A program made the translations under genes and the position numbers. Shown here one piece after another: positions 2-38,258 of a stretch of 56,058 bases of DNA. Under the pieces are notes generated by a model. The model saw only the letters and a program-made list of their open reading frames with translations, was not told where the DNA came from and ran no database searches. The stretch comes from Minisyncoccia bacterium (GTDB lineage Bacteria > Patescibacteriota > Minisyncoccia > Phycocordibacterales > SBAW01): assembly GCA_049997855.1 (NCBI GenBank), contig JBEKSG010000001.1, positions 1 to 56,058 on the forward strand, given 5' to 3'. Positions within the stretch are counted from its first letter, which is position 1. Each line of letters starts with the position of its first letter.

Positions 2-1444
2 GTGGGCAGCGCCAACCAAAACGGCTTTGTCGGCATCGGTGCCTCGACAAACCAAACCGCAACAACCTCCGTGCTTTCTGTCGGCAACAGCACTTCTATC
101 GCCTCAGGCAAGACCATTGCTTACTTTACCAATGCTGGCGGCACGGCATATCTATCCAACCTCGGCTTAAACGTTACGTCCGACATCCGCCTCAAGAAAA
201 ACATAGAACCGCTGGCTCCTGTACTCGCAGGCGTCCTCCAGCTCCAGCCAGTCACTTACAACTTTAACAGTGAGGCAAGCGGCACCCCGACACACACCGG
301 CTTTATTGCCCAACAGGTGCAGCCCATCTTCCCCGACCTTGTAAGCTCTGACAGCCAAGGCTACCTCTCACTCAACTACGCGGGCCTTACGCCGTATCTC
401 GTGTCGGCAGTGCAGTCGCAGCAGCAGGAGATAGACGCTATAGCATCATCGAGCGCAACCGCTCCGCAGATTTTCATCAGCAACGGTGCGGTAACGATAG
501 GAAGCGGCGCCACCTCGACTGTTACCATAAACGCCGGCACGTTTAGTTTTGCAAGCGCGGCAACTACCACAATTGTGAGCGGAGCTAACACTTGGACCAT
601 TGCGACATCGAGCACCTCAACGCCGATTGTTTCTATTTCAACCGGCAGCGCCACCACCTCGGCGAGCGTTTCGATCAACGGCGTGCTCTATGTTAACGGC
701 CAAAATATAAACAGTGAGATAGCTTCAACGACCAATGCAACCTCAACGCCGGCACAACTAGTGAGCGGGTCGTTTGCGTCGGCGACAGCAAGTCTTCAAA
801 GCGCGCTCTCCTCGACGCTTAGCGCAATCAACGGCGTTGCGCAAAGCGGCGTGCGCGAACTCGGCCTCGCGGTGCATGCGAGCGTCGGCGTGTTTGACAA
901 TCTCATTACGCAAACGCTCACCGCCACCACCATCAACGCCGACACGGTCAACACGCAAAAGCTTTGCGTCGGCACTACGTGCGTCACACAATCGCAGCTG
1001 CAAAATCTGTTAAATAATCAAAATAGCGGGGCAGGAAGCAACACTTCCGGCCTGCCCGGCCAGGGAGGTGGTTCGGGAGCTTTGGGAGGTGCCTCCTCGG
1101 GAAGTGCTTCCTCAACTGATGCAACTTCAACTCCTACCGTGCCTCCAACTATCTCCATCAACGGCGATAATCCCGCAACCATCAACGTGGGTGACACCTA
1201 CGCCGACTTGGGTGCAACCATCAGCGACACCGGCGCGGGGCAGGCGGGTGATGCAAACTTGGGGTTAAGCGTCAACATTGACGGCGGCGCTACCACAACG
1301 CCAAGCCAGATAGTTATTAATACGAGTATTGTGGGTACGCATACTATTATATATAGTGCAACCGACCAAAACGGATTGACCGGCACCGCAACACGAACGG
1401 TTAATGTCGTAGACCAAAATGCCACCTCAACGCCGACCAATTAA
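2..1444 (+). CDS. 5'-truncated large surface/fibre-like protein with Peptidase_S74 (intramolecular chaperone) domain, Ser/Thr-rich region and C-terminal Ig-like (DUF5011-type) domain
   Basis: SDIRLKKNI...LQPVTYNF...GFIAQQVQPIFPDLV...LNYAGLTPYLVSAVQ is an S74 signature. PPTISINGDNPATINVGDTYADLGATI...YSATDQNG..GTATRTVNV is an Ig-like repeat. The ORF is open at the window edge. Confidence 0.8.
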   Translation: MGSANQNGFVGIGASTNQTATTSVLSVGNSTSIASGKTIAYFTNAGGTAYLSNLGLNVTSDIRLKKNIEPLAPVLAGVLQLQPVTYNFNSEASGTPTHTGFIAQQVQPIFPDLVSSDSQGYLSLNYAGLTPYLVSAVQSQQQEIDAIASSSATAPQIFISNGAVTIGSGATSTVTINAGTFSFASAATTTIVSGANTWTIATSSTSTPIVSISTGSATTSASVSINGVLYVNGQNINSEIASTTNATSTPAQLVSGSFASATASLQSALSSTLSAINGVAQSGVRELGLAVHASVGVFDNLITQTLTATTINADTVNTQKLCVGTTCVTQSQLQNLLNNQNSGAGSNTSGLPGQGGGSGALGGASSGSASSTDATSTPTVPPTISINGDNPATINVGDTYADLGATISDTGAGQAGDANLGLSVNIDGGATTTPSQIVINTSIVGTHTIIYSATDQNGLTGTATRTVNVVDQNATSTPTN

Positions 1445-1467
1445 AAGTCATATATAATAGAGTGCAT

Positions 1468-2499
1468 ATGATGACACGAGTTGCAATAAACGGCTTTGGC
1501 CGTATCGGGAGATGTTTCGCGCGAGCGGCGGCTAATGACCCCGGCATAGAGATAGTTGCGGTAAATGACTTGGGCGACGTACAGACGCTCGCATATCTTT
1601 TACAGTACGACACGGTATATCACAAAGCGCCGTTCGAGGTTTCAGCGAGCGATGGATTTTTGCAGATGGGCAAAAACCGCGCAAAGTTTTTGCAAGAAAA
1701 AGATCCGGCCAAACTGCCGTGGAAGGATTTGCGGGTGGATGTTGTCGTCGAGTCGACCGGTTTGTTTACCGATTTTGCAAAAGCCGAGGCGCATATCACG
1801 GCGGGCGCCAAGCGCGTGGTTATTTCGGCTCCCGCCAAAGACGGCGTCTCCGAGGCAGGAGTTACAGTTAATGGTGTAACGGTTTTAATGGGCGTCAATC
1901 AAGAAAAACTCAAAGACTCAGCGCTCTCATCCAATGCATCATGCACTACCAACGCCGCAAGCCCGCTCATTGCAATATTGGACAAGAGCATAGGGATAGA
2001 AAAAGCAATTCTTTCAACGACGCACGGTTACACCGCGAGCCAGAGTTTGGTAGACAGCCCTGCTAAAAAAGATGTCAAAGAGGGGAGAGCCGCCGCGCAA
2101 AACATCGTGCCTACTTCGACCGGCGCGGCTGTTGCGGTTACGCAAGCGTATGAAAGCCTTAAACATAAGTTTGACGGCATTTCTTTGCGCGTACCGGTGC
2201 CATGCGGCTCCATTGCCGATGTGACATTTATCGCCAAGCGCGACACCACGCGCGAGGAGGTCAATAAACTTTTATCGGAAGCGGCACAAAGCCCCGAGTG
2301 GCAGGGTATTTTTTCTGTGACCGACGAGCCGCTCGTCTCAAGCGACATCATCGGCTCCACTTTTGGTTCCGTTGCAGACCTGGGGCTTACACGCGTGGTC
2401 GGCGGCAACCTAGTCAAGGTGCTTGCGTGGTACGACAACGAGATGGGCTATGCGCACACGCTCCTTCGTCATGTAAAAGAAGCAGGGAAGTTGATCTAA
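1468..2499 (+). CDS. gap: type I glyceraldehyde-3-phosphate dehydrogenase
   Basis: VAINGFGRIGR, SNASCTTN catalytic motif, WYDNEMGY. Confidence 0.97.
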   Translation: MMTRVAINGFGRIGRCFARAAANDPGIEIVAVNDLGDVQTLAYLLQYDTVYHKAPFEVSASDGFLQMGKNRAKFLQEKDPAKLPWKDLRVDVVVESTGLFTDFAKAEAHITAGAKRVVISAPAKDGVSEAGVTVNGVTVLMGVNQEKLKDSALSSNASCTTNAASPLIAILDKSIGIEKAILSTTHGYTASQSLVDSPAKKDVKEGRAAAQNIVPTSTGAAVAVTQAYESLKHKFDGISLRVPVPCGSIADVTFIAKRDTTREEVNKLLSEAAQSPEWQGIFSVTDEPLVSSDIIGSTFGSVADLGLTRVVGGNLVKVLAWYDNEMGYAHTLLRHVKEAGKLI

Positions 2500-2503
2500 T
2501 ATT

Positions 2504-2980
2504 ATGAAAAAAATTTATATCGCTTCCGACCACGCGGGCTTTGAACTTAAGGAGGCGCTCGTTCCTTTTTTAAACGAGCACGGCTACGAGGTGAACGACC
2601 TCGGTCCTGCCATTTATGACAAGGATGACGATTATCCCGACACCATCGGTCGCCTGGTGCGCGCCATAGAGGATGACAAAACCGCGTTCGGTATCGCTGT
2701 CGGCGGGTCAGGCCAGGGCGAGGCAATGGTCGCCAACCGCGCGCTCGGCGTGCGCGCCAGCGTTTACTACGGCCCCGCGCAAAAAACTCAGACCGACGCT
2801 TTGGGCAAAAGTCTCGGCATACTCGAGTCGCCGCGTGCGCACGAAGACTCCAACGTGTTGTGCCTCGCGGCGCGATTTTTATCGCAAGAGGACGCCAAAG
2901 CCGCCGTCATCCGCTGGCTCGAAACTCCTTTTACCGGCGAGGAGCGCCACGTACGCCGGATACAAAAGTTCGATCAATAA
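2504..2980 (+). CDS. rpiB: ribose-5-phosphate isomerase B (RpiB/LacA/LacB family)
   Basis: IASDHAGFELK, DDDYPD, GGSGQGEAMVANR, RHVRRI. Confidence 0.93.
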   Translation: MKKIYIASDHAGFELKEALVPFLNEHGYEVNDLGPAIYDKDDDYPDTIGRLVRAIEDDKTAFGIAVGGSGQGEAMVANRALGVRASVYYGPAQKTQTDALGKSLGILESPRAHEDSNVLCLAARFLSQEDAKAAVIRWLETPFTGEERHVRRIQKFDQ

Positions 2981-2989
2981 TTATTGTAT

Positions 2990-3691
2990 ATGGTTGAGAT
3001 ACTGCCGGCGGTGCTGCCAAAAAATTTTAAAGACTTGTGTGAGCATCTCGAGCGTATAAAGAGAGCGCCTGTTACGTGCGTGCAGATAGATGTAGCAGAC
3101 GGGATATTTGCACACAACCGCACCTGGCCGTACCGCGACGAGAGTACGTTTGCAAAGATAGCTAAAGAGGAGTGCGGCTTGCCGCTGTGGGACACATTTG
3201 ATTTTGAGTTTGATCTCATGATAGAGCATCCCGAAGAGCGCGTAATGGAATTCGTACATGCCGGAGCATCGCGCGTATTGGTGCATGCAGAGAGCGATGG
3301 AGCATTGCACGCAATGCAAAGGTTAGTCAACCTGCGCGAGGAAAGCGGCGCTTTGCCGCTTCGAGTGGGTGTGGCAATTGCCTGCAGCGAGCAGCCAGAC
3401 GTACTCGAACCGTTTGAAGCGCAGTTTGACTACGTGCAAGTGATGGGCATTGCAAAGGTTGGCTTCCAAGGCCAGCCGTTTGACGTGCGCGCACTCCACA
3501 TGCTGGAGCGCTTGCGCACGCGCTACCCCGAGCTGCCGCTCCAGGTAGATGGCGGAGTCACGTTGGGAAACGCGCGCGAACTCGCCAAAGCCGGCGCCAC
3601 AGGGTTGGTGGTTGGCTCCACCATTTTTAAATCCGAGGAACCGCTCGAGGAAATTAAAAAACTCCAAGCCGAGGCAAACAAGATGGTATAA
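2990..3691 (+). CDS. rpe: ribulose-phosphate 3-epimerase
   Basis: QIDVADGIF, DLMI, VQVMG..GFQGQPF, LQVDGGV, LVVGS; pentose-phosphate cluster context. Confidence 0.88.
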   Translation: MVEILPAVLPKNFKDLCEHLERIKRAPVTCVQIDVADGIFAHNRTWPYRDESTFAKIAKEECGLPLWDTFDFEFDLMIEHPEERVMEFVHAGASRVLVHAESDGALHAMQRLVNLREESGALPLRVGVAIACSEQPDVLEPFEAQFDYVQVMGIAKVGFQGQPFDVRALHMLERLRTRYPELPLQVDGGVTLGNARELAKAGATGLVVGSTIFKSEEPLEEIKKLQAEANKMV

Positions 3692-3693
3692 TA

Positions 3694-3810
3694 GTTAGGT
3701 AAAAGAAATCAAATTTTTTGGTCACCCTAATTTTTTTGCTAAAAAATTAGTATGTCTCGGCTCAGTCAGCCTCGACTTATTGCCCTAAAAATTTATTTCT
3801 TTTACCTAAC
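3694..3810. repeat. 117-bp intergenic inverted-repeat element (16-bp perfect arms enclosing inner hairpins)
   Basis: gttaggtaaaagaaat (3694-3709) / atttcttttacctaac (3795-3810); inner ctaatttttt...aaaaaattag (3727-3750). Confidence 0.85.
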
Positions 3811-3836
3811 CCAAACTTGATTTCTCTGAAATTTTT

Positions 3837-4691
3837 ATGCTTACGCAGGAAAAATTGCAGGAGTTGGAGCTCAAAGCCGAGGCCATCCGCGAAACTATCA
3901 TCAAGATGCTGGTAGCCGCGGGCTCGGGTCATACCGCCGGCCCCATGGGCATGGCCGATATTTTTGCCGCGTTTTATTTTTATATCCTCAATCACGATCC
4001 TCACAACCCCGCGCTTGAGGAGCGCGATCGGTTGATTTTGAGCAACGGACACATTGTGCCGGTGCGCTACGCGGCGATGGCGCACGCGGGCTACTTCCCG
4101 GTTGAGGAGTGCTTAACGTTGCGCAAATTTGGCTCGCGCTTGCAGGGGCATCCGGAGCGCTTGCGTTTGCCGGGGCTCGAGACTACCTCGGGGCCGCTCG
4201 GCTCAGGTTTGGGACAGGCGGCGGGCATCGCCTACGGCGCACGCATGGATAATAAAAAATTCCGTGTGTATTGCGCGATGAGCGACGGCGAACATGACGC
4301 GGGCAACCTGTGGGAATCGGCGATGTTTGCAGGCGCCAATAAGCTTTCAAATCTCACGGCGGTCATTGATCGCAACAACATACAAATAGACGGCATGACC
4401 GAGACTGTGATGCCGCTCGAGAACTTGCGCGCCAAGTACGAGGCGTTTAACTGGCACGTGCTCGAGTGCGACGGCAACAATATTGCCGCGTTTGTCGAGA
4501 TGGTTGATGAAGCAAAAGCCATTTACGAAAAGCCCACGGTTATCATCGCGCACACCATCCCCGGCAAAGGCATCAAAGAAATAGAGTTTGACTACCAGTG
4601 GCACGGCAAGCCACCCACCGCCGAGGAGGCAAAAAAGTTTTTGAACGAACTGCGCGCACTCAAAGGTACAATTGAGAGCGAGCATCAATAA
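3837..4691 (+). CDS. transketolase, N-terminal (TPP-binding) subunit
   Basis: SGHTAG, DRLILSNGH, LQGHP, GPLGSG, SDGE..GNLWE, HTIPGKG..WHGK. Confidence 0.95.
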   Translation: MLTQEKLQELELKAEAIRETIIKMLVAAGSGHTAGPMGMADIFAAFYFYILNHDPHNPALEERDRLILSNGHIVPVRYAAMAHAGYFPVEECLTLRKFGSRLQGHPERLRLPGLETTSGPLGSGLGQAAGIAYGARMDNKKFRVYCAMSDGEHDAGNLWESAMFAGANKLSNLTAVIDRNNIQIDGMTETVMPLENLRAKYEAFNWHVLECDGNNIAAFVEMVDEAKAIYEKPTVIIAHTIPGKGIKEIEFDYQWHGKPPTAEEAKKFLNELRALKGTIESEHQ

Positions 4692-4693
4692 TT

Positions 4694-5689
4694 ATGCTAA
4701 ACAAAGACGCAAAACTACGGGAGGATATTTTTAACGGTAAAGAGCAAGCGCCAACCCGCGACGGCTTTGGCAAAGCCCTGCTCGAGCTCGGCGAAAAAGA
4801 CTCGCGCGTCGTGGTGCTGTGTGCCGACCTGGCCGAGAGCACGCGCGTGCTGCCGTTTAAAGAAAAATATCCGGAGCGGTACATCGAGATAGGCGTCGCC
4901 GAACAAAATCTCGCCACCATTGCCGCGGGTCTCGCTAATTACGGCAAGATTCCGTTTATCACCTCTTATGCCACCTTTAGCCCCGGTCGCAACAACGAGC
5001 AAATCCGCACGACTATCGCGCTCAATAATGTGCCGGTAAAAATCGTCGGCTCGCACGCCGGTCTCTCGGTCGGTCCAGACGGTGCAACACATCAAGCGCT
5101 TGAGGACATCGCGCTCATGCGCGTCTTGCCCAACCTCACCGTGCTCTCGCCGTGCGATGCCGAGGAGGCGCGCAAAGCAACACTCGCTGCCGCCTCGCAC
5201 GAAGGGCCGATGTATATCCGCCTCGCGCGCGAAAAAACTCCGGTGATGACTACAAACGAGACTCCGTTTGAAATAGGTAAAGCAATGGTGCTATGGGAGT
5301 CGCCGCAGCGGGTGCAGGTTGTGATATTTGCCACTGGGCCGCTCGCATATCGCGCGCTTCACGCCGCCAAAGAGCTCGAGCACGAGGTACATACGGTTGT
5401 ATACAACTTGCACACGATAAAACCGCTCGATAAAGAAGCAATAGTTGCCGCCGCTAAAGAAGCCGGGGCAGTGGTAACGGTGGAAGAGCATCAACGCTCA
5501 GGCGGGATGGGGAGCGCCGTTGCTGAGCTTTTGGCAGAAGCGCATCCGGTTCCAATTGAGTTTATCGGCGTCAATGACCGTTTTGGACAAAGCGGCAAAC
5601 CGGATGAGCTCATTGAACACTACGGCCTCGGCGTGTCGCATATTAAAGATGCAATACGCAAAGCCTCGGCGCGTGCGGTGCGCTCGTAA
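4694..5689 (+). CDS. transketolase, C-terminal subunit
   Basis: IGVAEQN, GPDGATHQALED, TIKPLD, VEEHQ..GGMG, DRFGQSG. Confidence 0.95.
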   Translation: MLNKDAKLREDIFNGKEQAPTRDGFGKALLELGEKDSRVVVLCADLAESTRVLPFKEKYPERYIEIGVAEQNLATIAAGLANYGKIPFITSYATFSPGRNNEQIRTTIALNNVPVKIVGSHAGLSVGPDGATHQALEDIALMRVLPNLTVLSPCDAEEARKATLAAASHEGPMYIRLAREKTPVMTTNETPFEIGKAMVLWESPQRVQVVIFATGPLAYRALHAAKELEHEVHTVVYNLHTIKPLDKEAIVAAAKEAGAVVTVEEHQRSGGMGSAVAELLAEAHPVPIEFIGVNDRFGQSGKPDELIEHYGLGVSHIKDAIRKASARAVRS

Positions 5690-5697
5690 TACATAAT

Positions 5698-5865
5698 ATG
5701 GGAAACAACATCTGGAGCTCGCAGGTTAATCTATTTTTGAGCTTGTTATTTGTCGGTTCTTTTACGCTTGGCGCAGGGCTCATCCTTTGGCAGGCATTTT
5801 CTGGCCACAACCCAATTACTGACGCCATGTATACAGAGATACAAGCCGAAACACAAACCCCTTAA
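5698..5865 (+). CDS. small single-TM membrane protein (55 aa; below ORF-track cutoff)
   Basis: MGNNIWSSQVNLFLSLLFVGSFTLGAGLILWQAFSGHNPITDAMYTEIQAETQTP*; fills the tkt-pfkB gap, starting 8 nt after the tkt stop. Confidence 0.6.
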   Translation: MGNNIWSSQVNLFLSLLFVGSFTLGAGLILWQAFSGHNPITDAMYTEIQAETQTP

Positions 5866-5878
5866 CGTGTTTTTATCA

Positions 5879-6913
5879 TTATAAAGATACAATCTCCCAC
5901 GCCGCGGGCGGATGCGCCACGGCATGTTCAATTTGTTCACGCGTGAGCAGACCTTTTTGTGCGCCGATTTCTTGTATCACGGCCGCGGCATTTGCCGCGC
6001 CCCAGCACAACGCCTCATTAAGCGGTTTGCCGAGCGCCAAAGCGGCGGCGGTGCTCGAAGCGAGCGCGTCGCCCGCGCCGGTAATCTCAAACGGCGGCCG
6101 CGGGTCCGGATAGTGCGGCACGTGTATCGCTTTGCCTGTCTGCCCTGCTTGCGCAGGCGAGGCAAGCAGGCCCGCTTCGTCAACGGCATAGCACCCGTGC
6201 TTGCCGTCGGTGATAACCACAATCTTCGGTCCGAGCGCCTGCATGGCACAAAGCAACTCTTTCATGTCGCTGCCGGCGGGCTTGTTTAAAATACGTTCGG
6301 CCTCCTCTTTATTGCATATAAACAAGTCTGAACGCTCGTATATCGGTCGCAAAGCTTCAACTCCTAATTTTATTTGGAAGGTACCGGGTTGAAACGCGAG
6401 TTTGCTTTCGGGATATTTTTTGAGCCACTCTATCAGTGCTTGATGATAGGGCAATGAGTTGGCCGCGAGCGAGGAGAGGTATATCCACTTTGGAGCGGAT
6501 GCAAGCTCGGGTACGGTGTAGTCGTACTCCTCGTGTTTTACCAAAATGATGCGATTGTCGCCATACCACAGCACGTAGTGATAATTGCTCGGCCGTGTCG
6601 GGTCGATCACCATATACGTAGTGTTCACATGCTCTGCCTTAAGTACGCCCAAAGAGTCTTCGCCGTAGCGGTCTTTGCCAAGATACGCACGCAGGGCGGA
6701 GTGAAGTCCGAGCCGCGCGGCGGCAACTGCCGCATTGCTCGAGTTGCCAACGGCGGCGCATATGGTAAACGACTCGTAGGGGATTTTATCGCCCCAGCGC
6801 ATGCATATCTCGCACTCCTCGTTGTTAATTTTGCAATGCACATCGGCGTCCTTGAGGCGTATAAAAGGTTCGGTCGCGATGTCGCCGATGGCAAAAAAAT
6901 CTATGGGGTCCAT
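5879..6913 (-). CDS. PfkB-family carbohydrate kinase
   Basis: GNSSNAAVAAARLG, NKEEA, VVITDGKHG, ITGAGDA; start placed at MDPIDFF (6913). Confidence 0.9.
   Translation of the reverse strand: MDPIDFFAIGDIATEPFIRLKDADVHCKINNEECEICMRWGDKIPYESFTICAAVGNSSNAAVAAARLGLHSALRAYLGKDRYGEDSLGVLKAEHVNTTYMVIDPTRPSNYHYVLWYGDNRIILVKHEEYDYTVPELASAPKWIYLSSLAANSLPYHQALIEWLKKYPESKLAFQPGTFQIKLGVEALRPIYERSDLFICNKEEAERILNKPAGSDMKELLCAMQALGPKIVVITDGKHGCYAVDEAGLLASPAQAGQTGKAIHVPHYPDPRPPFEITGAGDALASSTAAALALGKPLNEALCWGAANAAAVIQEIGAQKGLLTREQIEHAVAHPPAAWEIVSL
6135..6170. repeat. nested 36-bp palindromic element in frame within pfkB
   Basis: outer arms cctgtctgcc (6135-6144) and ggcaagcagg (6161-6170) enclose, and partly overlap, inner cctgcttgcgcaggcgagg (6144-6162); encodes LLASPAQAGQTG on the - strand. 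Confidence 0.75.
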
Positions 6914-6936
6914 GTATATATAATAGTATATACTAG

Positions 6937-7009
6937 TAGAAAGTGCAGTAAAAGATTCTCTCAAAAAGGCTACGAAGGTTTTTCTCAAGAACTTTTACTG
7001 CACTTTCTA
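6937..7009. repeat. intergenic inverted repeat, 18-bp perfect arms, between divergent pfkB and fba
   Basis: tagaaagtgcagtaaaag (6937-6954) / cttttactgcactttcta (6992-7009). Confidence 0.85.
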
Positions 7010-7016
7010 TCCTACT

Positions 7017-7880: not shown

Positions 7881-7881
7881 A

Positions 7882-7956
7882 AAACAAAAAGAAACACAAG
7901 ATTTTGTGAGCGCTGCGAGCTGCCAAGGGAGCAAAATCTTGTGTTTCTTTTTGTTT
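7882..7956. repeat. intergenic inverted repeat, 25-bp perfect arms (may also terminate fba)
   Basis: aaacaaaaagaaacacaagattttg (7882-7906) / caaaatcttgtgtttctttttgttt (7932-7956). Confidence 0.9.
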
Positions 7957-7999
7957 AGAGTTGCAAAAATAAGGGTTTTTTTGTATAGTACTCTAGCCT

Positions 8000-8706: not shown

Positions 8707-10170
8707 ATGCCCAGACATGCGGCGCGAGCAATTGGCGCTTCTGTACTTTTTGCTCTTATCCTGATTATTGGTAACACAGAGGTTTCTCAAAACATCGCGC
8801 TCGCGCAGAGCGCGAGCGCTACCTCCGCCTTAGCCGACAGCTCAGGCCTGCCTGCGCAGGCAGGTTCCGACCAAACCGCTGCCTACAAAGCGTCGCTTCA
8901 GGCTCAGCTCGACGCTATCAATGCGCAGATTGCACAGCAACAAAGCATTCTTAGTGGAGCCGAGGCGCAAAGTAAGTCGCTCCAAAACACCATTGCAATC
9001 CTTAACGCACAAATAAAATCGGCCAAGCTCGCGATACAAGCTCGCGACCTCACGATCCAGCAGTTGACCTCAAACATCACCGCAAAGCAGGACACTATTT
9101 TTGGTCTCAACACCCAGCTCAACGGCGAGAAGGACTCGCTCGCTGGTATCATGCGCGAAAAACAGCAACTCGAGAACGAAAGCCTGGTCGTGGTCATGCT
9201 CTCATCCGACAGCCTTTCGCAATTTTTTTCTGACCTCGACACATTTGACTCAATAGATAAAAGTTTGCAAGCGTCGTTTACGCAAATTAGCAGCACCACG
9301 GTTGCAACGCAAGCCGAAAAGGACGCGCTCGAGGCTCAACTTGAGCAGGAATCGCAGTTGCGCCAAGTACAAGCGCTCCAAGAGCAGCAGGTGGAGGCTT
9401 CGCAGTCGCAAGAAAACAAACTGCTTGCCGAAACCAAGGGCCAGGAGGCGGCTTACCAAAAGCTGATTACCGCCAATCAAAAAACTGCCACGCAAATCCG
9501 CACCGAACTTTTCCAGCTTAACGGCTCGGCGGCGATTCCGTTTGGCAAAGCGCTCGACTACGCCAATGCCGCAGCCGCCAAAACCGGCATCCGACCCGCA
9601 TTTTTGCTCGGCATCATCAAAGAAGAGTCCGACTTAGGCAATAACGTAGGCACCGGCTCTTACACGGTGGACATGAACCAGACCCGCGACGTGCCCGTCT
9701 TTTTGGCTATTACACAGAGCCTCGGGCTCAATCCGGCCACGATGCCTGTCTCCGCCAAGGCGTGGTATGGATGGGGCGGCGCGATGGGTCCGGCGCAATT
9801 TATCCCATCCACGTGGGCGCTGTATGCCGGTTATCAAAAACCTGCATACATATATAATCAGAGTGCCGATAGGATCGGTGTACTCACCGGCGACACGCCA
9901 CCCAACCCGTGGGCGCCACAAGATGCGTTTATGGCGGCCGCACTTTACCTCACCGACGATAATGCCGATGCCAAAACACCTGCCGCGGAGTTTAAAGCGG
10001 CCATGTGTTATCTTACCGGTTGTGGCAATGTCGACGACCAATCATTATGGTTTTATGGCAACCAGGTGCTTTGCAACGAACTGCAGTTCCAGCAAGACAT
10101 AGACACGATAACAGGGAGCAAAGACGCACCCGCCATGCAGAGCAACAGCCTTTATTACGGACAATGCTAA
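8707..10170 (+). CDS. secreted coiled-coil (CwlO/PcsB-like) protein with C-terminal lytic murein transglycosylase domain
   Basis: signal peptide, long Gln/Leu heptad coiled coil, LLGIIKEESDLG (catalytic E), GGAMGPAQFIPSTW, PNPW.PQDA. Confidence 0.85.
   Translation: MPRHAARAIGASVLFALILIIGNTEVSQNIALAQSASATSALADSSGLPAQAGSDQTAAYKASLQAQLDAINAQIAQQQSILSGAEAQSKSLQNTIAILNAQIKSAKLAIQARDLTIQQLTSNITAKQDTIFGLNTQLNGEKDSLAGIMREKQQLENESLVVVMLSSDSLSQFFSDLDTFDSIDKSLQASFTQISSTTVATQAEKDALEAQLEQESQLRQVQALQEQQVEASQSQENKLLAETKGQEAAYQKLITANQKTATQIRTELFQLNGSAAIPFGKALDYANAAAAKTGIRPAFLLGIIKEESDLGNNVGTGSYTVDMNQTRDVPVFLAITQSLGLNPATMPVSAKAWYGWGGAMGPAQFIPSTWALYAGYQKPAYIYNQSADRIGVLTGDTPPNPWAPQDAFMAAALYLTDDNADAKTPAAEFKAAMCYLTGCGNVDDQSLWFYGNQVLCNELQFQQDIDTITGSKDAPAMQSNSLYYGQC
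8847..8864. repeat. 18-bp perfect palindrome CCTGCCTGCGCAGGCAGG, in frame (LPAQAG)
   Basis: identical to 32513-32530. Confidence 0.9.
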
Positions 10171-10215
10171 GCCCTCCGGTTGCATGAGTCACTCTATATA
10201 TGGTATAGTCCTTGC

Positions 10216-10455
10216 ATGAAAACAGAGACGCATCCGGCATATTTCCCCGAGGCACAGGTAGTTTGCGCCTGCGGCCGTACCTTTAGTGTTGGCTCCACTC
10301 AAGAAAAACTTGAGGTTGAAATCTGCTCCGCCTGCCATCCTTTTTACACCGGCAACGAAAAAATCCTCGATGCCGCCGGCCGCGTAGAGAAGTTCAAAAA
10401 CCGCCGCCTGGCTGCGCAGGCAGGCGCTGCCGCCGTTAAAAAAGCTGCTAAATAG
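10216..10455 (+). CDS. rpmE: 50S ribosomal protein L31
   Basis: MKTETHPAY..VVCACG..EICSACHPFYTG..DAAGRVEKF; TATAGT 6 nt before ATG 10216. Confidence 0.96.
   Translation: MKTETHPAYFPEAQVVCACGRTFSVGSTQEKLEVEICSACHPFYTGNEKILDAAGRVEKFKNRRLAAQAGAAAVKKAAK
10407..10424. repeat. 18-bp palindrome copy (1 mismatch) in the rpmE tail
   Basis: cctggctgcgcaggcagg, encodes LAAQAG. Confidence 0.8.
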
Positions 10456-11493: not shown

Positions 11494-12237
11494 ATGGATA
11501 AACAAGCAACTATAGACAAGCTTTTTTCAATCGGAGCGCATTTTGGCTATGCGCCTTCGCGCCGGCATCCGTTTGCCGCACGTTTTATATTCGGCAGCAA
11601 GGGAGGCAGCGAGATTTTTGATCTTGAGAAGACAGCCGAGGGCCTTGCAGGCGCGCTCGAATTTGTTAAAAAACTCGCGAGCGAGCGCAAAGTGTTACTC
11701 TTTATCGGCAGCAAAGCCGAGGCTCGCGTGCCGCTCAAACGCGCCGCCCTGCGCATCAACCAGCCGTATGTCGCCGGTCGCTGGATAGGCGGATCGCTCA
11801 CCAACTTTCAGGAAATAAAAAAACGCCTCACGCGCCTTGTTGAAATTACCGACATGCGCGAGAGCGGCGAGATTGCAAAGTACACCAAGCGCGAGCGCTT
11901 GCTCATGGACAGGGAAGCCACCGACCTCGATGCCATGTTTGGCGGCTTGCGCGGTATGACACGTGTCCCCGACGCGCTCTTTATCATCGACCCAAAGCAA
12001 GAAAGCGCCGCGGTTGCCGAGGCCACGCAACTCAAAATCCCCGTTATCGCGCTCCTCAACTCCGATTGCGACGGCAGCCGCATTGCCTACCCAATACCGG
12101 GCAACGACGCATCGCTCCAGGTTATCACCTACATACTCAACGAAGTTGCCAAGGCGTATGCCGACAATCTCGGCACGGAAAAACCCGAGGCAGACCTGCC
12201 TGCTCAGGCAGGGGCAATTCCGGCAGCGGCCGCATAA
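11494..12237 (+). CDS. rpsB: 30S ribosomal protein S2
   Basis: GAHFG, RWIGGSLTNF, PDALFIID, IPGND. Confidence 0.96.
   Translation: MDKQATIDKLFSIGAHFGYAPSRRHPFAARFIFGSKGGSEIFDLEKTAEGLAGALEFVKKLASERKVLLFIGSKAEARVPLKRAALRINQPYVAGRWIGGSLTNFQEIKKRLTRLVEITDMRESGEIAKYTKRERLLMDREATDLDAMFGGLRGMTRVPDALFIIDPKQESAAVAEATQLKIPVIALLNSDCDGSRIAYPIPGNDASLQVITYILNEVAKAYADNLGTEKPEADLPAQAGAIPAAAA
12195..12212. repeat. 18-bp palindrome copy (1 mismatch) in the rpsB tail
   Basis: cctgcctgctcaggcagg, encodes LPAQAG. Confidence 0.85.
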
Positions 12238-30194: not shown

Positions 30195-30245
30195 TTCAGC
30201 AAAGTTTACAGGACGGGTGCGGGTTTCAAAAGTTCTTTTTCACCT

Positions 30246-31848: not shown

Positions 31849-31863
31849 GACTATAGTAGACGC

Positions 31864-32223: not shown

Positions 32224-32243
32224 TCGATATATAATAGGAAGCA

Positions 32244-34481
32244 ATGCGTTTGAAGAGCATCGAACTTTCGGGGTTTAAGTCTTTTTCAAAAAAGACCTCG
32301 CTTGAATTTGGCTCGGCTATTACTGCGGTGGTGGGCCCCAACGGCTCGGGCAAGAGCAACATTGCCGAGAGCTTCCGCTTTGTATTGGGCGAGCAATCGA
32401 TGAAGTCGATGCGCGGCAAGCGCGGTGAAGATTTGATATGGAACGGTTCGACAAGCTCACCACGCGCGGGTCGCGCGTCGGTAAAACTTATTTTTGACAA
32501 TAGCGATAGGGCCCTGCCTGCGCAGGCAGGACTCGCGCTCGACTTTGACGAGGTGGCAATCGAGCGCGTGGTGTACCGCGACGGCGCCAACGATTATTTG
32601 CTCAATGGCTCTACGGTGCGCCTGCGCGACATTGCGGAGCTCCTCAGCCAAGCCAACATCGGCGCCTCGGGGCACCATATTATCTCCCAAGGCGAGGCCG
32701 ACCGCGTGCTTACCGCAAGCATCAAAGAGCGCCGCGAGATGATAGAAGATGCGCTCGGCCTCACGGCATTTTTGTACAAGCGTGAGGAAGCCGAGCGCAA
32801 AATGGAAAAGACCGCCGAGAACGTACGCGAGGTCGAGAGTCTGCGGCGCGAGCTTGCGCCGCACGTGAAGTTTTTGACCGCGCAGGTTAAAAAAATCGAA
32901 GAGGGCTCGCGCCTGCAAAACGAGGTCGCCCTGCGCTATGCCGAATATTTAAAACGCGAGAGCGTTTTTATTCATGTTGAAGAGGAGGACATTAGAGCCG
33001 TTGAAGAAGGACCCAAACGTGAGCACGCGCAATTGGAAGCGGCGATTTTACATTTACGCCACGAGCTTAACCAAAAGCACGGCGAAGAAGAGCCGGTGCG
33101 CGAGCTCATGAGGCTTGAGCAGGAAGGTCGCACGCTTCGCGGCAAGCGCGAGGAGATATCGCGCGAGCTTGGCCGCATCGAGGGAGAGCTTGCGGCATCG
33201 GCGCGCATCACACAGTCGCTTAGTGGCACCGTGCCCGCCGCGCAGGCCGAGGAATTTGCCACTAGGGTGTTAAATGAATTGAATGAGGCACTTACTTTGA
33301 GCGAAGTTGAGAGGCTCAAAGCAAAACTCAATGCGCTGATGGTGTTTGCTACCGAGTTTATGCGTCGGCTCAGGGGCCTACATCAAGACGTAGGCATAGG
33401 TGTGCCCTTACTTGCGACCAACAAAGCAGAGTTTGAACGCGAGTTAAGTGATTTGAATAAAGAGGAAGAGCATGTACGTGCGGAGGTTGATACACTGCGC
33501 AAAAAAATCGAAAGTAAAAAGGATGCGTCGCGCGAGGCGGAGCGCGAGCTTTTCCAAGCGATGGCAAAGCGAAGCGAGCTTGAGGTAGCGCTTGCCGGCG
33601 TACGTGTGCGCATCGAGGCCCTCACACGGTTGAAAGAAAATTTTGTCCGCGAGCTCGGCGAGGCCGGAGCGCTCATAGGGCGCAGCGTTTTTGAGTATGC
33701 CAACTATATAGTGCTTGATGCGCATGGGCAAAAACTTTCCGAGCGAGAGATTGCCCACGAGCCGCGTGCGGCCCAGGATGAGCGCCGGCGCAAGCTCGAG
33801 CGCGGCAAGATAAAACTTGAAGAACTCGGCACAGGCAATTCGGCGGAGACGCTCAAAGAGTATAAAGAGACTACCGAACGCGAGCAGTTTTTGGCGCGCG
33901 AACTTTCCGATTTGGAGGCAAGCGCCGCCACATTGCGCGAACTTATAGAGGAACTCACCAAAACGCTCGAAGCGCGCTTTGCCGAAGGCGTTGCAAAAAT
34001 AAACAAAGAGTTCGATGCCTTTTTTAAGCTGATGTTTGGTGGTGGTGACGCCTCGCTTGCGATTGTTGAGGAGCAAGTCTATCGCCGCGGCGGCGGGGAA
34101 ACCGATGATGCCGAAGTAGAGATAGAGAAAGGAATAGAAATTTCCGTCAACATCCCGCACAAACGGGTCAAAGGCGTCCAGGTGCTTAGCGGTGGCGAGC
34201 GCGCGCTTATCTCGATTGCGCTTATTTTTGCGATGAGCCAGGTTAATCCGCCGCCGTTTTTGATACTCGACGAAACCGACGCCGCGCTCGACGAGGCCAA
34301 CTCGCGCCGCTATGGCGATATGATAGAAAATTTGGCAAAAAAATCGCAGCTGATTTTAATAACCCACAACCGCGAAACCATGAGCCACGCGGGCGTACTC
34401 TACGGCATAACTATGGGCTCTGACGGCGTTTCCAAACTCCTCTCGGTAAAATTTGAAGAGGCGTTGGCAGTTGCTAAATAG
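32244..34481 (+). CDS. smc: short SMC-family ATPase (745 aa)
   Basis: GFKSF, GPNGSGKSN, IISQG, LSGGE, PPPFLILDETDAALDEAN, ITH. Confidence 0.9.
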   Translation: MRLKSIELSGFKSFSKKTSLEFGSAITAVVGPNGSGKSNIAESFRFVLGEQSMKSMRGKRGEDLIWNGSTSSPRAGRASVKLIFDNSDRALPAQAGLALDFDEVAIERVVYRDGANDYLLNGSTVRLRDIAELLSQANIGASGHHIISQGEADRVLTASIKERREMIEDALGLTAFLYKREEAERKMEKTAENVREVESLRRELAPHVKFLTAQVKKIEEGSRLQNEVALRYAEYLKRESVFIHVEEEDIRAVEEGPKREHAQLEAAILHLRHELNQKHGEEEPVRELMRLEQEGRTLRGKREEISRELGRIEGELAASARITQSLSGTVPAAQAEEFATRVLNELNEALTLSEVERLKAKLNALMVFATEFMRRLRGLHQDVGIGVPLLATNKAEFERELSDLNKEEEHVRAEVDTLRKKIESKKDASREAERELFQAMAKRSELEVALAGVRVRIEALTRLKENFVRELGEAGALIGRSVFEYANYIVLDAHGQKLSEREIAHEPRAAQDERRRKLERGKIKLEELGTGNSAETLKEYKETTEREQFLARELSDLEASAATLRELIEELTKTLEARFAEGVAKINKEFDAFFKLMFGGGDASLAIVEEQVYRRGGGETDDAEVEIEKGIEISVNIPHKRVKGVQVLSGGERALISIALIFAMSQVNPPPFLILDETDAALDEANSRRYGDMIENLAKKSQLILITHNRETMSHAGVLYGITMGSDGVSKLLSVKFEEALAVAK
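32445..32463 (+). repeat. REP-like hairpin GGTTCGACAAGCTCACCAC, in frame in smc
   Basis: same TTCGAC..GCTCA core as the intergenic copy at 55473-55494. Confidence 0.55.
32513..32530. repeat. 18-bp perfect palindrome CCTGCCTGCGCAGGCAGG, in frame in the smc head domain
   Basis: FDNSDRA-LPAQAG-LALDFDEV. Confidence 0.9.
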
Positions 34482-34528
34482 GTAAAGAGTGCTAGTGTTT
34501 TAGACGGACTGTAAAGGGAGGCCCGACT

Positions 34529-34771
34529 ATGGTGCTCGAAGCCAGTGCAGGAGATTATCGTTTTTTACTCCAAAGAAAGGAGGACGGAACTTTTAAGTGT
34601 TTTCGCACTCCTATTGATTCAAACGGCGATCCGGCCAATGCCGAAGAACTCACCGAGTGGGCTCAATTGCCACCAATGATCTTCCAAGTCTTTACCAAAG
34701 CCGTTGAAAGCTTGCCTCACTCGGGAGCATCTCCTATGAGACAAGCTCAAAGTCCAGCTGCCGCGCATTAA
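34529..34771 (+). CDS. small hypothetical protein (80 aa)
   Basis: SD agggagg; 3' end overlaps the rnr 3' end. Confidence 0.55.
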   Translation: MVLEASAGDYRFLLQRKEDGTFKCFRTPIDSNGDPANAEELTEWAQLPPMIFQVFTKAVESLPHSGASPMRQAQSPAAAH

Positions 34772-36698
34772 GGTCGGCAGCAATCAGCTTGACGCGCACT
34801 CGGTCTCCGAGTGCGTGTTTTTTTTTCGTGCGCCGGCCCACCAGCGCATAGTCTTTAGCCACGTAGTTGTAAAAATCATCACCAATCGTGCGCACACGCA
34901 CGAAACCTTCGGCGGCGCTCTCACGTTCCTCTACATACAAGCCCCAGTCGGTAACGCCGGATATGACCGCGTCGAATATCTGCCCGATTTTAGGGAGCAT
35001 ATACTCAACTTGTTTGTAGCGGATGCTCTCGCGCTCGGCAGCAACCGCCTCAGCCTCCTGCTCGCTCGCGGTGATGCACATCCGCTCCAAGTTGCTCATC
35101 TCTGTACGTGTTATCGGATTACCGCTTAGGTGCGAAGCCAAGATGCGATGCGCGAGCATGTCGGGATAGCGGCGGATAGGCGAGGTAAAATGCGTGTAGT
35201 AGTCAAACGAAAGGCCAAAATGCCCGATGTTTTTGGTCGAGTAAATTGCTTTTGCCATCGAGCGCAGGGTTGCAGTGCGTATCAAATGCTCCTCGGGCTT
35301 GCCTTCGATCTGTTTGAGCAGATGTTGGATGTCTTTGGCGCTCGGCTTTTTTTTGTTGTGGGCAAAGTCGTACCCCATGGCACGCACAAAGGTGGCGAGC
35401 TCGGCAATCTTGTCTTTTTTAGGCTCGTCGTGGATGCGGTAGAGAAAGGTGTACTTTTTTTCGGGCACGCGCTCGGCGAGCTTTGATACGAATAAAGAGA
35501 CCTCGCGATTGGCGAGGAGCATAAACTCTTCAATAAGCAGGTTTGTCTCAATGCGCTCCTTGCGCATCACTTGTATAGGCACTCCTTTTTCGTCCAATAT
35601 AAAACGCACCTCGTTGTCGCCAAAATCGATGGCGCCCTTACGTTCGCGCTCGCGGCGTAAAACGCGAGCGAGCGAGCGCAATATAAGAAGTTCGCGGATG
35701 TATTCTCCTTTTTCTTTGTCTAAGATCTCCTGTGCTTCTTCATACGTAAAACGTTTATTGGAGCGGATAACTGTTTTTGCAAATTTCCGGTCGAGCACGT
35801 TGCCTTTTGCATCGATGCGGAAGATTACCGAAAATGCGAGCCGACCCTCAGCTTCCTTGAGCGAGCACACGTTGCCGGAGAGTTGGTGGGGAAGCATCGG
35901 TATTGTTGCGTCTACCAAATACACGCTCGTGCCGCGCTTCTCAGCTTCGTTGTCTATCGCGGTGCCCGGCACGCAAAAGTAGGTTGCGTCGGCGATATGC
36001 ACACCAATTTCATACTTGCCATTTGCAAGCTCCTCAACCGAGAGTGCGTCGTCAAAGTCTTTAGCGTCGGCCGGGTCGATAGTAAACGTCACGCTGTCGC
36101 GATAGTCCAAACGCTTTGGTATTTCGCTTGCGATGGTTGCCACATGAGTGTCTTCAATTTTTTTCGCCTCGGCCTCCACCGTGGCGGGGAAAGTGGTCGA
36201 GAAACCGTGCTCAAGCACGATGGCGTTCATCTCGGTGCGATGTTCTCCCGCTTTGCCGAGATGGTTTACGATAGTGCCCACCGGCTCCTTGCCGGCGTCA
36301 AACGATATAAGTTTGACCACCACCTTCTCGCCCTCGGCATATACATTGCCGCCTTGCAAAGTTAACGGGCGATAAAACCGTTGATCATCCGCTACGGCTA
36401 TGAGCTTACCCTGAGCACGCCCCAGAGTTGCAACAAACTCCTCTTTGGCGCGCGAAATTATTTTTATTACTTTGCCTTTAGGACGAGGAAAGAGTCCGAT
36501 CAGTTCTATCTCCGCCGTGTCGCCGTTAAGCGCGCCCGCGAGGTTTGATGTGTTTATCTCGATATCCTCAAGCTCTTTTTTATCCCCCCAAGCGAGCGGA
36601 AAGGGCACATACCCTACGCCTTTGCGCGTTATTTGGACAATGCCGGTTATGTGCTTTTTAGCGGTCTCTTTGCGGCCCGCACGATTTCCCCAAGGCAT
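34734..36698 (-). CDS. rnr: ribonuclease R (RNB family)
   Basis: FTIDPADAKDFDDALS, VHIAD, RGTSVYL, LIEEFMLLAN, HFGL..YTHFTSPIRRYPD, C-terminal S1. Confidence 0.94.
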   Translation of the reverse strand: MPWGNRAGRKETAKKHITGIVQITRKGVGYVPFPLAWGDKKELEDIEINTSNLAGALNGDTAEIELIGLFPRPKGKVIKIISRAKEEFVATLGRAQGKLIAVADDQRFYRPLTLQGGNVYAEGEKVVVKLISFDAGKEPVGTIVNHLGKAGEHRTEMNAIVLEHGFSTTFPATVEAEAKKIEDTHVATIASEIPKRLDYRDSVTFTIDPADAKDFDDALSVEELANGKYEIGVHIADATYFCVPGTAIDNEAEKRGTSVYLVDATIPMLPHQLSGNVCSLKEAEGRLAFSVIFRIDAKGNVLDRKFAKTVIRSNKRFTYEEAQEILDKEKGEYIRELLILRSLARVLRRERERKGAIDFGDNEVRFILDEKGVPIQVMRKERIETNLLIEEFMLLANREVSLFVSKLAERVPEKKYTFLYRIHDEPKKDKIAELATFVRAMGYDFAHNKKKPSAKDIQHLLKQIEGKPEEHLIRTATLRSMAKAIYSTKNIGHFGLSFDYYTHFTSPIRRYPDMLAHRILASHLSGNPITRTEMSNLERMCITASEQEAEAVAAERESIRYKQVEYMLPKIGQIFDAVISGVTDWGLYVEERESAAEGFVRVRTIGDDFYNYVAKDYALVGRRTKKKHALGDRVRVKLIAADLNARQLDFELVS

Positions 36699-36785
36699 TA
36701 GTGGGCTCACTATAGCGCATTTATTGACTTATAGCCAGCTTCTGATACAGTATTCACACGCCCCTGTAGGGGTCATTTTTAAGAA

Positions 36786-37133
36786 ATGATTACTATCCGC
36801 CTTACACGCGTTGGCAAAAAAAACGACCCGAGCTTTCGGGTTATTGTCGTTGAGAGCAAGCGCAAGCCGCAGCCCGGCAACTATCTCGAGATGGTGGGCT
36901 CGTACGACGCCCGCACCGGCCGCATCGACCTTAAAACCGATCGCATCAAGCACTGGATTGACATGGGCGCGCAGGTTTCGGACACCGTGCACAACCTCCT
37001 CGTGTCCAGCAAAGTTATAGATGCAAAAAAGATAAACGTGCTTTCAAAGAAAACGGTTGTTAAGACGGAAAAGCTGGCAACAAAAACTCCAGCTGAGGAT
37101 AACGTAGTTGCATCAGAGCCCGTTGCGGAATAG
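36786..37133 (+). CDS. rpsP: 30S ribosomal protein S16
   Basis: IRLTRVGKKNDPSFRVIV..GSYD..W..GAQVSDTV. Confidence 0.96.
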   Translation: MITIRLTRVGKKNDPSFRVIVVESKRKPQPGNYLEMVGSYDARTGRIDLKTDRIKHWIDMGAQVSDTVHNLLVSSKVIDAKKINVLSKKTVVKTEKLATKTPAEDNVVASEPVAE

Positions 37134-37169
37134 ACTAAAAGTAGGTTTTAACAATATAAATATACCGAA

Positions 37170-37550
37170 ATGGCAGAAAAAGATCAGGAATTTTTAGAGT
37201 TCGTGGTTAAAGGCTTGGTGGAGCATCCGGAAGACGTAAAGATTGGCCGCGTGGTCGACGAGATGGGAGTTTTGCTTACACTCGACCTCAACGGTGACGA
37301 CATGGGCAAGGTCATTGGCCGTTCCGGCAATACCGCCAAGGCCATCCGTACGCTTCTTCGTGTCGTGGGAATGAAGCACAACGCGCGCGTCAATCTTAAA
37401 ATAAACGAGCCCGTTGGCGGCTCGCGCGTAGGCGGTGCGTCCGACATGGGCGGCAGCCAGGCGCAAGGTTGGGACGGCACGCACGAGGCTCCGGCGACAC
37501 CGGCAATGAAGTCGATAGACGAAGCCATGGGCGATCTCTCCAATTTTTAG
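37170..37550 (+). CDS. khpA: KH-domain RNA-binding protein KhpA (UPF0109)
   Basis: LVEHPEDV, DMGKVIGRSGNTAKAIRTLL; rpsP-KH-trmD synteny. Confidence 0.9.
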   Translation: MAEKDQEFLEFVVKGLVEHPEDVKIGRVVDEMGVLLTLDLNGDDMGKVIGRSGNTAKAIRTLLRVVGMKHNARVNLKINEPVGGSRVGGASDMGGSQAQGWDGTHEAPATPAMKSIDEAMGDLSNF

Positions 37551-37562
37551 TTTATTTTTAAA

Positions 37563-38258
37563 ATGAGATTCCACGTTATTACCCTTTTTCCCGAGGTTAT
37601 TGATGCTTATGCGCAAGCTTCGATTTTGGGGCGCGCTCAGCGCGAGAAGATTTTGGAAGTTACGAGTTACCAATTGCGCGATTTTGTCGCCGACCCTGGC
37701 CGGGCAGGCAGATGGGCATATAAAAAAGTCGATGAGCGGCCGTATGGCGGCGGCCCGGGGATGATTATCCGGGCCGAGCCGGTAATACGCGCAGTTGGAG
37801 CGATCCAAAAAAAGATTAAAAGCGGCAAAAAAGCAAAAGTTTTAATAACGGCGGCAGGCGGGAAGCCTTTGACCAATGCGTATGCTAAAAACTTGAGCAA
37901 AAAATACGCAGATGTGATTATTATCTGTGGCCGCTATGAGGGGATTGATGCACGTGCCAAAAAAGTTTTGAAAGCCGAGGAGGTGTCGGTCGGCCCCTAC
38001 ATTTTGACCGGCGGCGAAGTGCCGGCGCTTGCGATTATCGATGCCACGGCGCGACAGATACCGGGCGTCCTTGGCAAGCTTGAGTCGCTCGAAGAGGGGC
38101 GGATAGCGAGCCACGAGATGTACACGCGCCCGGAGGTGCTGGTGCACAAAGGCCCTGACGGGCGAAGCAAAACATATCGCGTGCCAAAAGTGTTGCTCTC
38201 AGGCAATCGCAAGCTCCTCGACGCGTGGAAAAACAAAAAACGCAGCAACCCTAAATAA
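37563..38258 (+). CDS. trmD: tRNA (guanine-N1)-methyltransferase
   Basis: ITLFPE, VDERPYGGGPGM, CGRYEGID, SVGPYILTGGE, YTRP, VPKVLLSGN. Confidence 0.96.
   Translation: MRFHVITLFPEVIDAYAQASILGRAQREKILEVTSYQLRDFVADPGRAGRWAYKKVDERPYGGGPGMIIRAEPVIRAVGAIQKKIKSGKKAKVLITAAGGKPLTNAYAKNLSKKYADVIIICGRYEGIDARAKKVLKAEEVSVGPYILTGGEVPALAIIDATARQIPGVLGKLESLEEGRIASHEMYTRPEVLVHKGPDGRSKTYRVPKVLLSGNRKLLDAWKNKKRSNPK
37694..37708 (-). repeat. variant palindromic element (CCTGCCCGGCCAGGG), also at 1051-1068 on +
   Basis: 15-nt reverse-complement identity with cctgcccggccagggagg at 1051; encodes DPGRAG in trmD and LPGQGG in ORF 2..1444. Confidence 0.65.

Follow-up and report, generated by a model that had tools for sequence, protein, structure and literature searches.

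The first 56,058 nucleotides of the genome assembly of an uncultivated Minisyncoccia bacterium (GCA_049997855.1, contig JBEKSG010000001.1; this whole stretch is referred to as the window) carry copies of a perfect 18-bp palindrome, CCTGCCTGCGCAGGCAGG (PAL18), which consists of two abutting 9-nt arms. Comparison with related genomes demonstrated that PAL18 has been inserted whole into protein-coding genes, at sites that differ from species to species, and that the genic copies are read almost exclusively in one phase. Elsewhere in the same genome the palindrome brackets the gene of a small GIY-YIG nuclease, and across metagenome samples the type of palindrome follows the clade of the nuclease. 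The best reading of these findings is that PAL18 is a non-autonomous hairpin micro-element, mobilised in trans and filtered by selection on the peptide that it encodes. A very short selfish element sorted by selection for frame and peptide phase had already been proposed in a sequence-only reading of the window, and the insertions, the lineage-specific sites and the phase distribution described below support that proposal.

Dispersal and insertion of PAL18

The genome under study (G000; other G numbers denote genomes of the same genus) comprises 730,079 bases in 12 contigs, with about 51% G+C, and the window is the start of its contig C1. Counting of k-mers over the whole genome identified 23 exact copies of PAL18, 28 copies with at most one mismatch and 32 with at most three, when the expectation from base composition is about 1.3e-5 exact copies per genome. 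PAL18 is the commonest 18-mer of G000, and no match to it appeared in 100 dinucleotide-preserving shuffles of the window. The sequences neighbouring the 28 copies are unrelated to one another, which indicates that the repeat unit is the palindrome alone, and the density of copies is low, at one per 32 kb. Folded as single-stranded DNA (ssDNA), PAL18 is predicted to form a 7-bp stem with a 4-nt loop (-6.5 kcal/mol). A logo of the flanks displayed G/A at position -1 and G/C at position -2; because this enrichment is weak and confounded with codon position, no target motif is claimed.

Insertion of PAL18 was observed directly in the gene for SMC (open reading frame (ORF) 32244-34481), where an exact copy at 32513-32530 encodes residues 91-96 of the head. 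The protein of G000 reads RA-LPAQAG-LALDFD, against RA-LNLDFD in 27 of 27 aligned orthologues of the same genus, and the DNA holds exactly the 18 bases of PAL18 between GGGC and ACTC, with no target-site duplication. Two sites in other members of the genus gave the same result: the copies in the GAPDH gene of G010, compared with eight relatives, and in a membrane protein gene of G008, compared with G000, are exact 18-bp insertions without duplication. In the minus-strand pfkB gene (5879-6988), the copy at 6135-6170 is a nested 36-bp form in which one PAL18-like unit lies within the centre of another, both somewhat decayed, and it corresponds to a clean insertion of 12 codons, and hence 12 residues, relative to all four alignable orthologues. 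The hexapeptide is also present in a loop of UvrB and in one of GluRS, and the corresponding loops are empty in five of five and six of six relatives, respectively. At these two sites the net length difference is +15 nt (UvrB) and +21 nt (GluRS) rather than +18, since each loop has, apart from the palindrome, a further difference of one codon.

The sequence-only reading had foreseen clean indels of six residues in SMC and 12 in PfkB, and both were found, the nested form in pfkB being real. It had also named TrmD and the ribosomal proteins S2 and L31: the TrmD loop at 37694 is about seven residues longer in G000 than in five of five relatives, and the tails of S2 and L31 are too unalignable for an indel call, as is the low-complexity, Ser/Gly-rich site at 1051. 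Exact nested forms (arm-arm-centre-arm) were found in none of the 79 genus genomes, and the two nested cases at hand, the one at 6135 in the window and one metagenome locus, do not establish a preference for insertion into the centre of the palindrome.

The remaining simple copies of the window stand where they had been reported. An exact copy at 8847-8864 lies in the N-terminal part of ORF 8707-10170, whose product has a weak SLT transglycosylase match in Pfam, below the cut-off. Copies with one mismatch lie in the C-terminal tails of L31 (CCTGGCTGCGCAGGCAGG, 10407-10424, gene 10180-10455) and of S2 (CCTGCCTGCTCAGGCAGG, 12195-12212, gene 11494-12237). The mismatch in S2 is synonymous and the copy reads LPAQAG, as does that at 8847; the copy in L31 reads LAAQAG because of its mismatch. 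Together with that in SMC, these simple copies all share the phase previously described for them. That PAL18 is an artefact of assembly or sequencing seems to us wholly improbable. The genome was assembled from a metagenome, and one contig of run X1 joins position 8864 to position 12190 via the repeat, but a contig of the independent run X3 bridges the 10407 copy without differences, and contigs of the independent runs X2 and X3 do so for the 12195 copy. Besides, 35 of the 78 other genomes of the genus contain the sequence and none contains a reversed control, the sequence extends to other phyla, and a codon-phase bias is not expected of an artefact. The X1 contig connects two PAL18 copies, skips 3325 bases and has a short side of 22 letters; its joint may stem from the repeat's effect on the assembly graph or represent a rare recombinant.

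A second family of micro-elements is represented in the window by the 15-mer CCCTGGCCGGGCAGG, at 37694-37708 in the TrmD loop, and by its reverse-complement copy CCTGCCCGGCCAGGG, at 1051-1065 in the Ser/Gly-rich stretch of a surface protein (ORF 2-1444). Both copies, listed earlier as an inverted pair of a PAL18 variant, are present, and a third exact copy was located at C3:58911.

Reading phase and independent spread in related species

Among the 28 copies of G000 with at most one mismatch, 25 are genic and three are intergenic, one between rplB and rpsS and two flanking the small nuclease gene. The earlier claim that all copies lie inside ORFs is correct for the window and does not extend to the whole genome. 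According to Pfam, the hosts comprise the ribosomal proteins L31, S2, S5, L10 and L7/L12; IF-2, GatC, GluRS and a class I aminoacyl-tRNA synthetase; SMC, UvrB and UvrC; an M50 protease, an epimerase, a pseudouridine synthase and two MBL-fold proteins; a pilin and, with two copies each, PilN and an Ig-like surface protein; and a protein with an MliC domain. To these are added the ORF with the weak SLT match and a small membrane-anchored protein without a Pfam match.

The phase bias suspected from the window is pronounced genome-wide. The 25 genic copies are read as LPAQAG (xxC CTG CCT GCG CAG GCA GGx) in 24 cases, as PACAGR in one and as CLRRQ in none (24:1:0; binomial 6e-11). The sole PACAGR copy lies in a prepilin leader, right before the G-FTLLE processing motif, in the part that is cleaved off. 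A comparison of intragenic and intergenic copies had been proposed as well; most copies are indeed genic, but their share (25/28) is not above the crude coding fraction of 0.87. Since the genic share is close to the coding fraction and the phase is biased, selection on the peptide fits the data better than targeting of genes.

PAL18, either exact or with identical arms and one to four extra central bases, was found in 35 of the 78 other genus genomes, and the control sequence, PAL18 read backwards, in 0 of 78. Most of the variants are the 20-mer CCTGCCTGCCGGCAGGCAGG (PAL20). With variants included, G019 holds 21 copies and G060 and G085 hold 10 each; exact PAL18 reaches 23 copies in G000, compared with at most six in any other genome of the genus. 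In G019 each of the six PAL18 copies falls in a long ORF and is read as LPAQAG, a reading shared by at least 12 of the 14 copies in G008, G010, G001 and G018, while the PAL20 copies of G019 mostly read LPAGRQ plus one residue. When the sites of relatives were aligned to their G000 orthologues, PAL18 sites corresponded to gaps of six residues and four PAL20 sites to gaps of seven. No insertion site common to G000 and another species was seen among the sites examined: the closest relatives of G000 lack its insertions, and sites of five other species are empty in G000. It follows from this comparison that the element has spread independently in each lineage. Both palindromes also occur side by side in G000, in the leaders of adjacent prepilin genes, where PAL18 (C4:12548-12565, PACAGR) and PAL20 (C4:13224-13243, LPAGRQ) precede the G-FTL(I/L)E motif.

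Some palindrome-derived loops may persist and diverge, and GAPDH (ORF 1462-2499, site 1840-1857) is a possible example. At the site where G010 carries a fresh PAL18 (LPAQAG), a loop of six residues (GVSEAG or GADEAG) is found in G000, G003, G017 and G012; 15 other genus members have a six-residue gap there and five have a gap of three to five residues. The loop of G000 matches PAL18 at 9 of 18 bases, and these loops may be old, diverged copies of PAL18 or a coincidence. Exact PAL18 was also found in 25 viral contigs, mostly in long ORFs and in mixed phases, and two pairs of viral contigs carry two copies 656 and 5167 bases apart. The retrieved stretches of the 25 contigs contained no GIY-YIG genes; as the phases are mixed too, nothing follows from the viral copies.

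A host could instead keep such palindromes as functional sites, either for DNA uptake and recombination, in the manner of NTS repeats and Ssn nucleases, or for the organisation of the chromosome, in the manner of parS, NBS or matS. The letter-perfect state of 23 of the 28 copies and the conservation of the sequence across phyla would fit such a role; G000 encodes parts of a type IV pilus, and SsnA and NTS are described in the main text of PMC11893778 as modulating transformation in Neisseria. The sites, however, arose by insertion and not by point mutation, they are not conserved between species, and their density is low. The strong filter on peptide phase, too, speaks of a tolerated cost rather than of chosen placement. 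Sites of the parS, NBS, matS or uptake-sequence kind were set aside, the copies being insertions, lineage-specific and sparse. Upkeep as functional sites is, on this evidence, an improbable explanation, although such a role is compatible with mobility of the palindrome.

A small nuclease gene and its tRNA-linked cassette

The sequence-only reading had noted that no mobilising enzyme was evident. This remains true of the window, but the search for a GIY-YIG gene flanked by the same palindrome identified one on another contig of the genome, at C8:27962-28201. The ORF has 95 residues, or 80 from the likely ATG, and matches the Pfam domain GIY-YIG over residues 16-84 (E 4e-16), with no other domain; it is the only intact small GIY-YIG gene of G000. 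A search of NCBIfam with the protein gave nothing above cut-off (TIGR01453 scored 20 bits, against a cut-off of 56), and among solved structures the closest chains are those of the UPF0213 proteins 1zg2 and 1ywl, followed by SLX1. The ORF lies directly 5' of a minus-strand tRNA-Gln(ttg) gene, which is found 50 nt downstream of it, and is bracketed by PAL18 copies at C8:27927 and C8:28218. These copies are part of two 36-nt direct repeats, TTAGA-PAL18-CGATCGGGCAATA, which turned out to be copies of the first nucleotides of tRNA-Gln with PAL18 inserted after nucleotide 10. Right beside the bracketed ORF lies a further GIY-YIG ORF, truncated to 51 residues (C8:28307-28459, opposite strand, Pfam E 1e-5).

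Small GIY-YIG genes, one to five per genome, are present in 26 of 30 sampled genus genomes and are at most about 50% identical to the nuclease of G000. In the loci read in relatives, the ORF again has its place immediately 5' of a tRNA gene, and a duplicated 5' part of that tRNA, with a GC-rich palindrome in its D-arm, precedes the ORF; the palindrome and its position vary by lineage. Rfam recognised only tRNAs in five cassette loci. The cassettes of relatives at tRNA-Gln, tRNA-Asn and tRNA-Ser carry quite different GC-rich hairpins at different D-arm positions, in that of G042 a unit of about 37 nt occurs three times in tandem, and some inserts in relatives' cassettes look nested. The insert in the tRNA-Gln pseudo-half beside the GIY-YIG gene of G076 is exactly the 15-mer CCCTGGCCGGGCAGG of the second micro-element family.

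The relation between palindrome and nuclease was followed in two sets of 80 loci. The first (tRNA-Gln-linked) consisted of 80 relatives of the G000 nuclease in metagenome contigs, 42-66% identical to it; the second (tRNA-Leu-linked) consisted of the best 80 of 466 confirmed loci of a sister clade from species-representative genomes, 57-71% identical. In the first set, tRNA-Gln lies directly downstream in 59 of 80 loci and exact PAL18 within 150 nt in 53, and PAL20 was found in none (0/80). Of the upstream PAL18 copies, 44 of 46 stand after tRNA nucleotide 10, between TCG and T, and a downstream PAL18 is also present in 11 of the 80 loci. In the second set, which spans Bacteroidota, Ignavibacteriota, Patescibacteria and others, tRNA-Leu lies downstream in 53 of 80 loci, exact PAL20 occurs in 33 and PAL18 in none (0/80). 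Five genomes of other lineages with Leu-type cassettes contain 2-12 dispersed palindrome copies each, with 19-, 20- or 21-nt centres. Within the genus, the palindrome and a small GIY-YIG gene (E <=1e-10) occur together in 24 genomes, the gene only in 12, the palindrome only in 11 and neither in 31, an association with an odds ratio of 5.6 (p 5e-4, uncorrected for kinship), and all eight genomes with at least seven palindrome copies have a small GIY-YIG gene. The nuclease of G000 has no homologue above 52% identity in the 78 other genus genomes; together with the highest number of PAL18 copies, this is consistent with recent acquisition and a subsequent burst.

Mobilisation of PAL18 by the GIY-YIG protein is the best-supported mechanism, and we consider it probable, with room for doubt. 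The palindrome would enter many unrelated sites as a whole and leave no target-site duplication, and its partner would probably be the 80-residue single-domain nuclease encoded at C8:27962-28201. The nuclease may act on the palindrome, most likely as a single-stranded hairpin, as the published Ssn nucleases do on their repeats, and host repair or ligation would then put copies at new breaks. As 18 bp are six codons, each genic insertion keeps the frame. Selection would remove the readings with cysteine or arginine (PACAGR, CLRRQ) and the copies in intolerant positions, and the survivors would be LPAQAG loops and tails.

The arrangement of the cassette also raises the possibility that the solo palindromes are scars, that is, that a complete PAL-GIY-PAL unit enters a gene and recombination between its palindromes deletes all but one of them, as in the formation of a solo long terminal repeat. 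The direct repeats with PAL18 that bracket the G000 cassette, and the downstream PAL18 in 11 of the 80 metagenome relatives, are what such a process needs. Yet the cassettes seen were all at a tRNA gene or without a nearby tRNA, and none was inside a protein gene; the orthologous sites in relatives are empty and never occupied by a cassette; and the repeats of the cassette include tRNA-derived flanks (TTAGA and CGATCGGGCAATA) that the solo copies lack. We regard an origin as scars as unlikely.

A different enzyme could also move PAL18, for example a RAYT-like HUH (Y1) transposase acting on ssDNA hairpins. Enzymes of the HUH class cut hairpin ssDNA and join it again with no target duplication, and the search for RAYT or HUH genes did find a gene of this kind in G000, about 14 kb past the end of the window: a RAYT-like Y1 transposase (C1:70139-70819, in the region 70120-71478; Pfam Y1_Tnp, E 8e-11) between pilin genes. 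Its flanks, however, carry a different hairpin, the 19-nt ACGGAGGTTWAACCTCCGT, with four copies around the gene and 15 in G000 at up to two mismatches; PAL18 is not near the RAYT gene, and it flanks the GIY-YIG gene both in G000 and in 53 of 80 relatives. In-frame insertion of a hairpin is not specific to PAL18, since uvrB (C8:6149-6194) contains two tandem RAYT-type hairpins in frame, which encode a repeated TEVKPSE; at this site, UvrB of G000 has an insertion of about 24 residues relative to four of five relatives, and G005 has a different insertion. On balance, movement of PAL18 by a RAYT-like enzyme appears still a little less credible than the scars.

Several points weigh against mobilisation by the GIY-YIG nuclease. 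No GIY-YIG enzyme is known to rejoin DNA, which leaves the insertion step without a known chemistry, and the RAYT-type hairpins in UvrB indicate that a second hairpin/enzyme pair also reaches coding DNA. None of the 20 exact PAL18 copies of G008, G010, G001, G018 and G019 (4, 3, 3, 4 and 6, respectively) is found within a tRNA-Gln pseudo-half or adjacent to a GIY-YIG gene, so that these five genomes hold solo copies without a detected PAL18 cassette. Similarly, a search for small GIY-YIG genes at E 1e-10 gave no hit in 11 of the 35 genus genomes that bear the palindrome, many of these assemblies being fragmented. The link between palindrome and nuclease clade could be mere co-inheritance of the whole cassette. 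PAL20 measures exactly 20 nt in tRNA pseudo-halves and adds seven codons (21 nt) in four genes, from which it follows that the junction is not always exact. Alleles without the 18 bases at PAL18 sites were not seen among the metagenome contigs, which are contigs and not raw reads. Finally, the motif of the Ssn repeats as given in the main text of PMC11893778 (HGTCWY...RNCYNB) has 0 matches on either strand of G000 and PAL18 does not fit it, nor does PAL18 have the oriented non-palindromic flank that, according to the same text, NTS needs.

Comparison with known systems and implications

By likeness of architecture, the closest published counterpart of the pair formed by PAL18 and the GIY-YIG protein would be the Ssn nucleases with their hairpin repeats. 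As presented in the main text of the study, these are GIY-YIG proteins of 94 residues with a single domain, which cut ssDNA, and not dsDNA or RNA, site-specifically next to their cognate hairpin repeats (NTS/dRS3, 'SRM'); the repeats are found on the flanks of the gene and scattered through the genome. The authors of the study remark on resemblances to IS200/IS605 and REP/RAYT (Chenal et al., 2025; PMC11893778). Common to both systems, on that description, are a single-domain GIY-YIG protein of about 80-95 residues, a gene bracketed by repeats that are also dispersed, and different repeats with different nuclease lineages. They differ in that 2% of NTS are reported to be intragenic (PMC11893778), compared with 25 of 28 PAL18 copies, in frame, and in that the cassette here sits in a duplicated 5' part of a tRNA gene; the word 'tRNA' is absent from the main text of PMC11893778. 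A GIY-YIG gene among tRNA genes is also known from phage T4, where, as far as the account in PMC2330249 goes, SegB is a free-standing homing endonuclease in a tRNA gene cluster and acts on tRNA gene DNA. SegB is a multi-domain protein that secures its own inheritance via double-strand-break repair, and no dispersed palindrome is known to accompany it. Unlike I-TevI and the Seg homing endonucleases, the 80-residue protein of G000 is a GIY-YIG domain only, with no separate DNA-binding domain.

Other short dispersed elements resemble PAL18 in part. It lacks the layout of miniature inverted-repeat transposable elements, terminal inverted repeats with target duplication, and no duplication was found at SMC, at GAPDH of G010 or at the G008 site. 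Like REP/REPIN-RAYT systems, it is a short, GC-rich, dispersed hairpin that flanks the gene of a small ssDNA enzyme and leaves no target duplication. RAYTs are thought to act on REPs, which are extragenic by definition, imperfect and longer than PAL18. Beyond this, the fold and the chemistry of the enzyme differ, PAL18 flanks no Y1 gene, and 25 of its 28 copies are genic. Insertion into protein-coding genes with the frame kept is shared with the Rickettsia palindromic elements, which are roughly 100-150 bp long and restricted to Rickettsia, and for which we know of no enzyme. PAL18, in contrast, has 18 bp, relatives that cross phyla and a candidate enzyme. Very short GC-rich palindromes near tRNA genes, and also in coding sequence, occur in fungal mitochondria as well (the PstI palindromes that flank tRNA genes in Neurospora and the GC clusters in yeast var1); unlike PAL18 they are organellar, have other sequences and have no established enzyme. 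No paper with the PAL18 sequence or with a cassette of tRNA, GIY-YIG gene and palindrome was found in a literature search that left out subscription journals and supplementary files. In conclusion, nuclease-associated hairpin repeats and in-frame palindromic selfish DNA are known in kind, and PAL18 is distinguished by a minimal size, a strict filter on the peptide phase, a cassette found across phyla and copies in core genes.

A bolder view, which we hold as tentative and rather doubtful, is that PAL18 and PAL20, nothing more than two arms of 9-10 nt, are smaller than any other mobile DNA known. A GIY-YIG ssDNA nuclease of 80 residues would copy them in trans, its own gene residing in a self-repairing, phylum-crossing tRNA-gene cassette, and each nuclease clade would recognise a palindrome of its own. 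The spreading hairpins would steadily add new loops of six or seven residues to essential proteins in bacteria with small genomes. For the kind of ssDNA-cutting tools that the main text of PMC11893778 proposes for Ssn, the two clades offer candidate pairs of enzyme and substrate: the tRNA-Gln clade with PAL18 and the tRNA-Leu clade with PAL20. If the nuclease does move the hairpin, the lower size limit for mobile DNA would have to be revised, and the very widespread family of tiny GIY-YIG proteins, in which the role of only the Neisseria member has been studied, would gain a function in genome dynamics. Selfish DNA would then have a simple route for adding short loops to ribosomal proteins, aminoacyl-tRNA synthetases, SMC, UvrB and UvrC, and this would bear on the many small lineage-specific insertions in the proteins of candidate-phyla bacteria.

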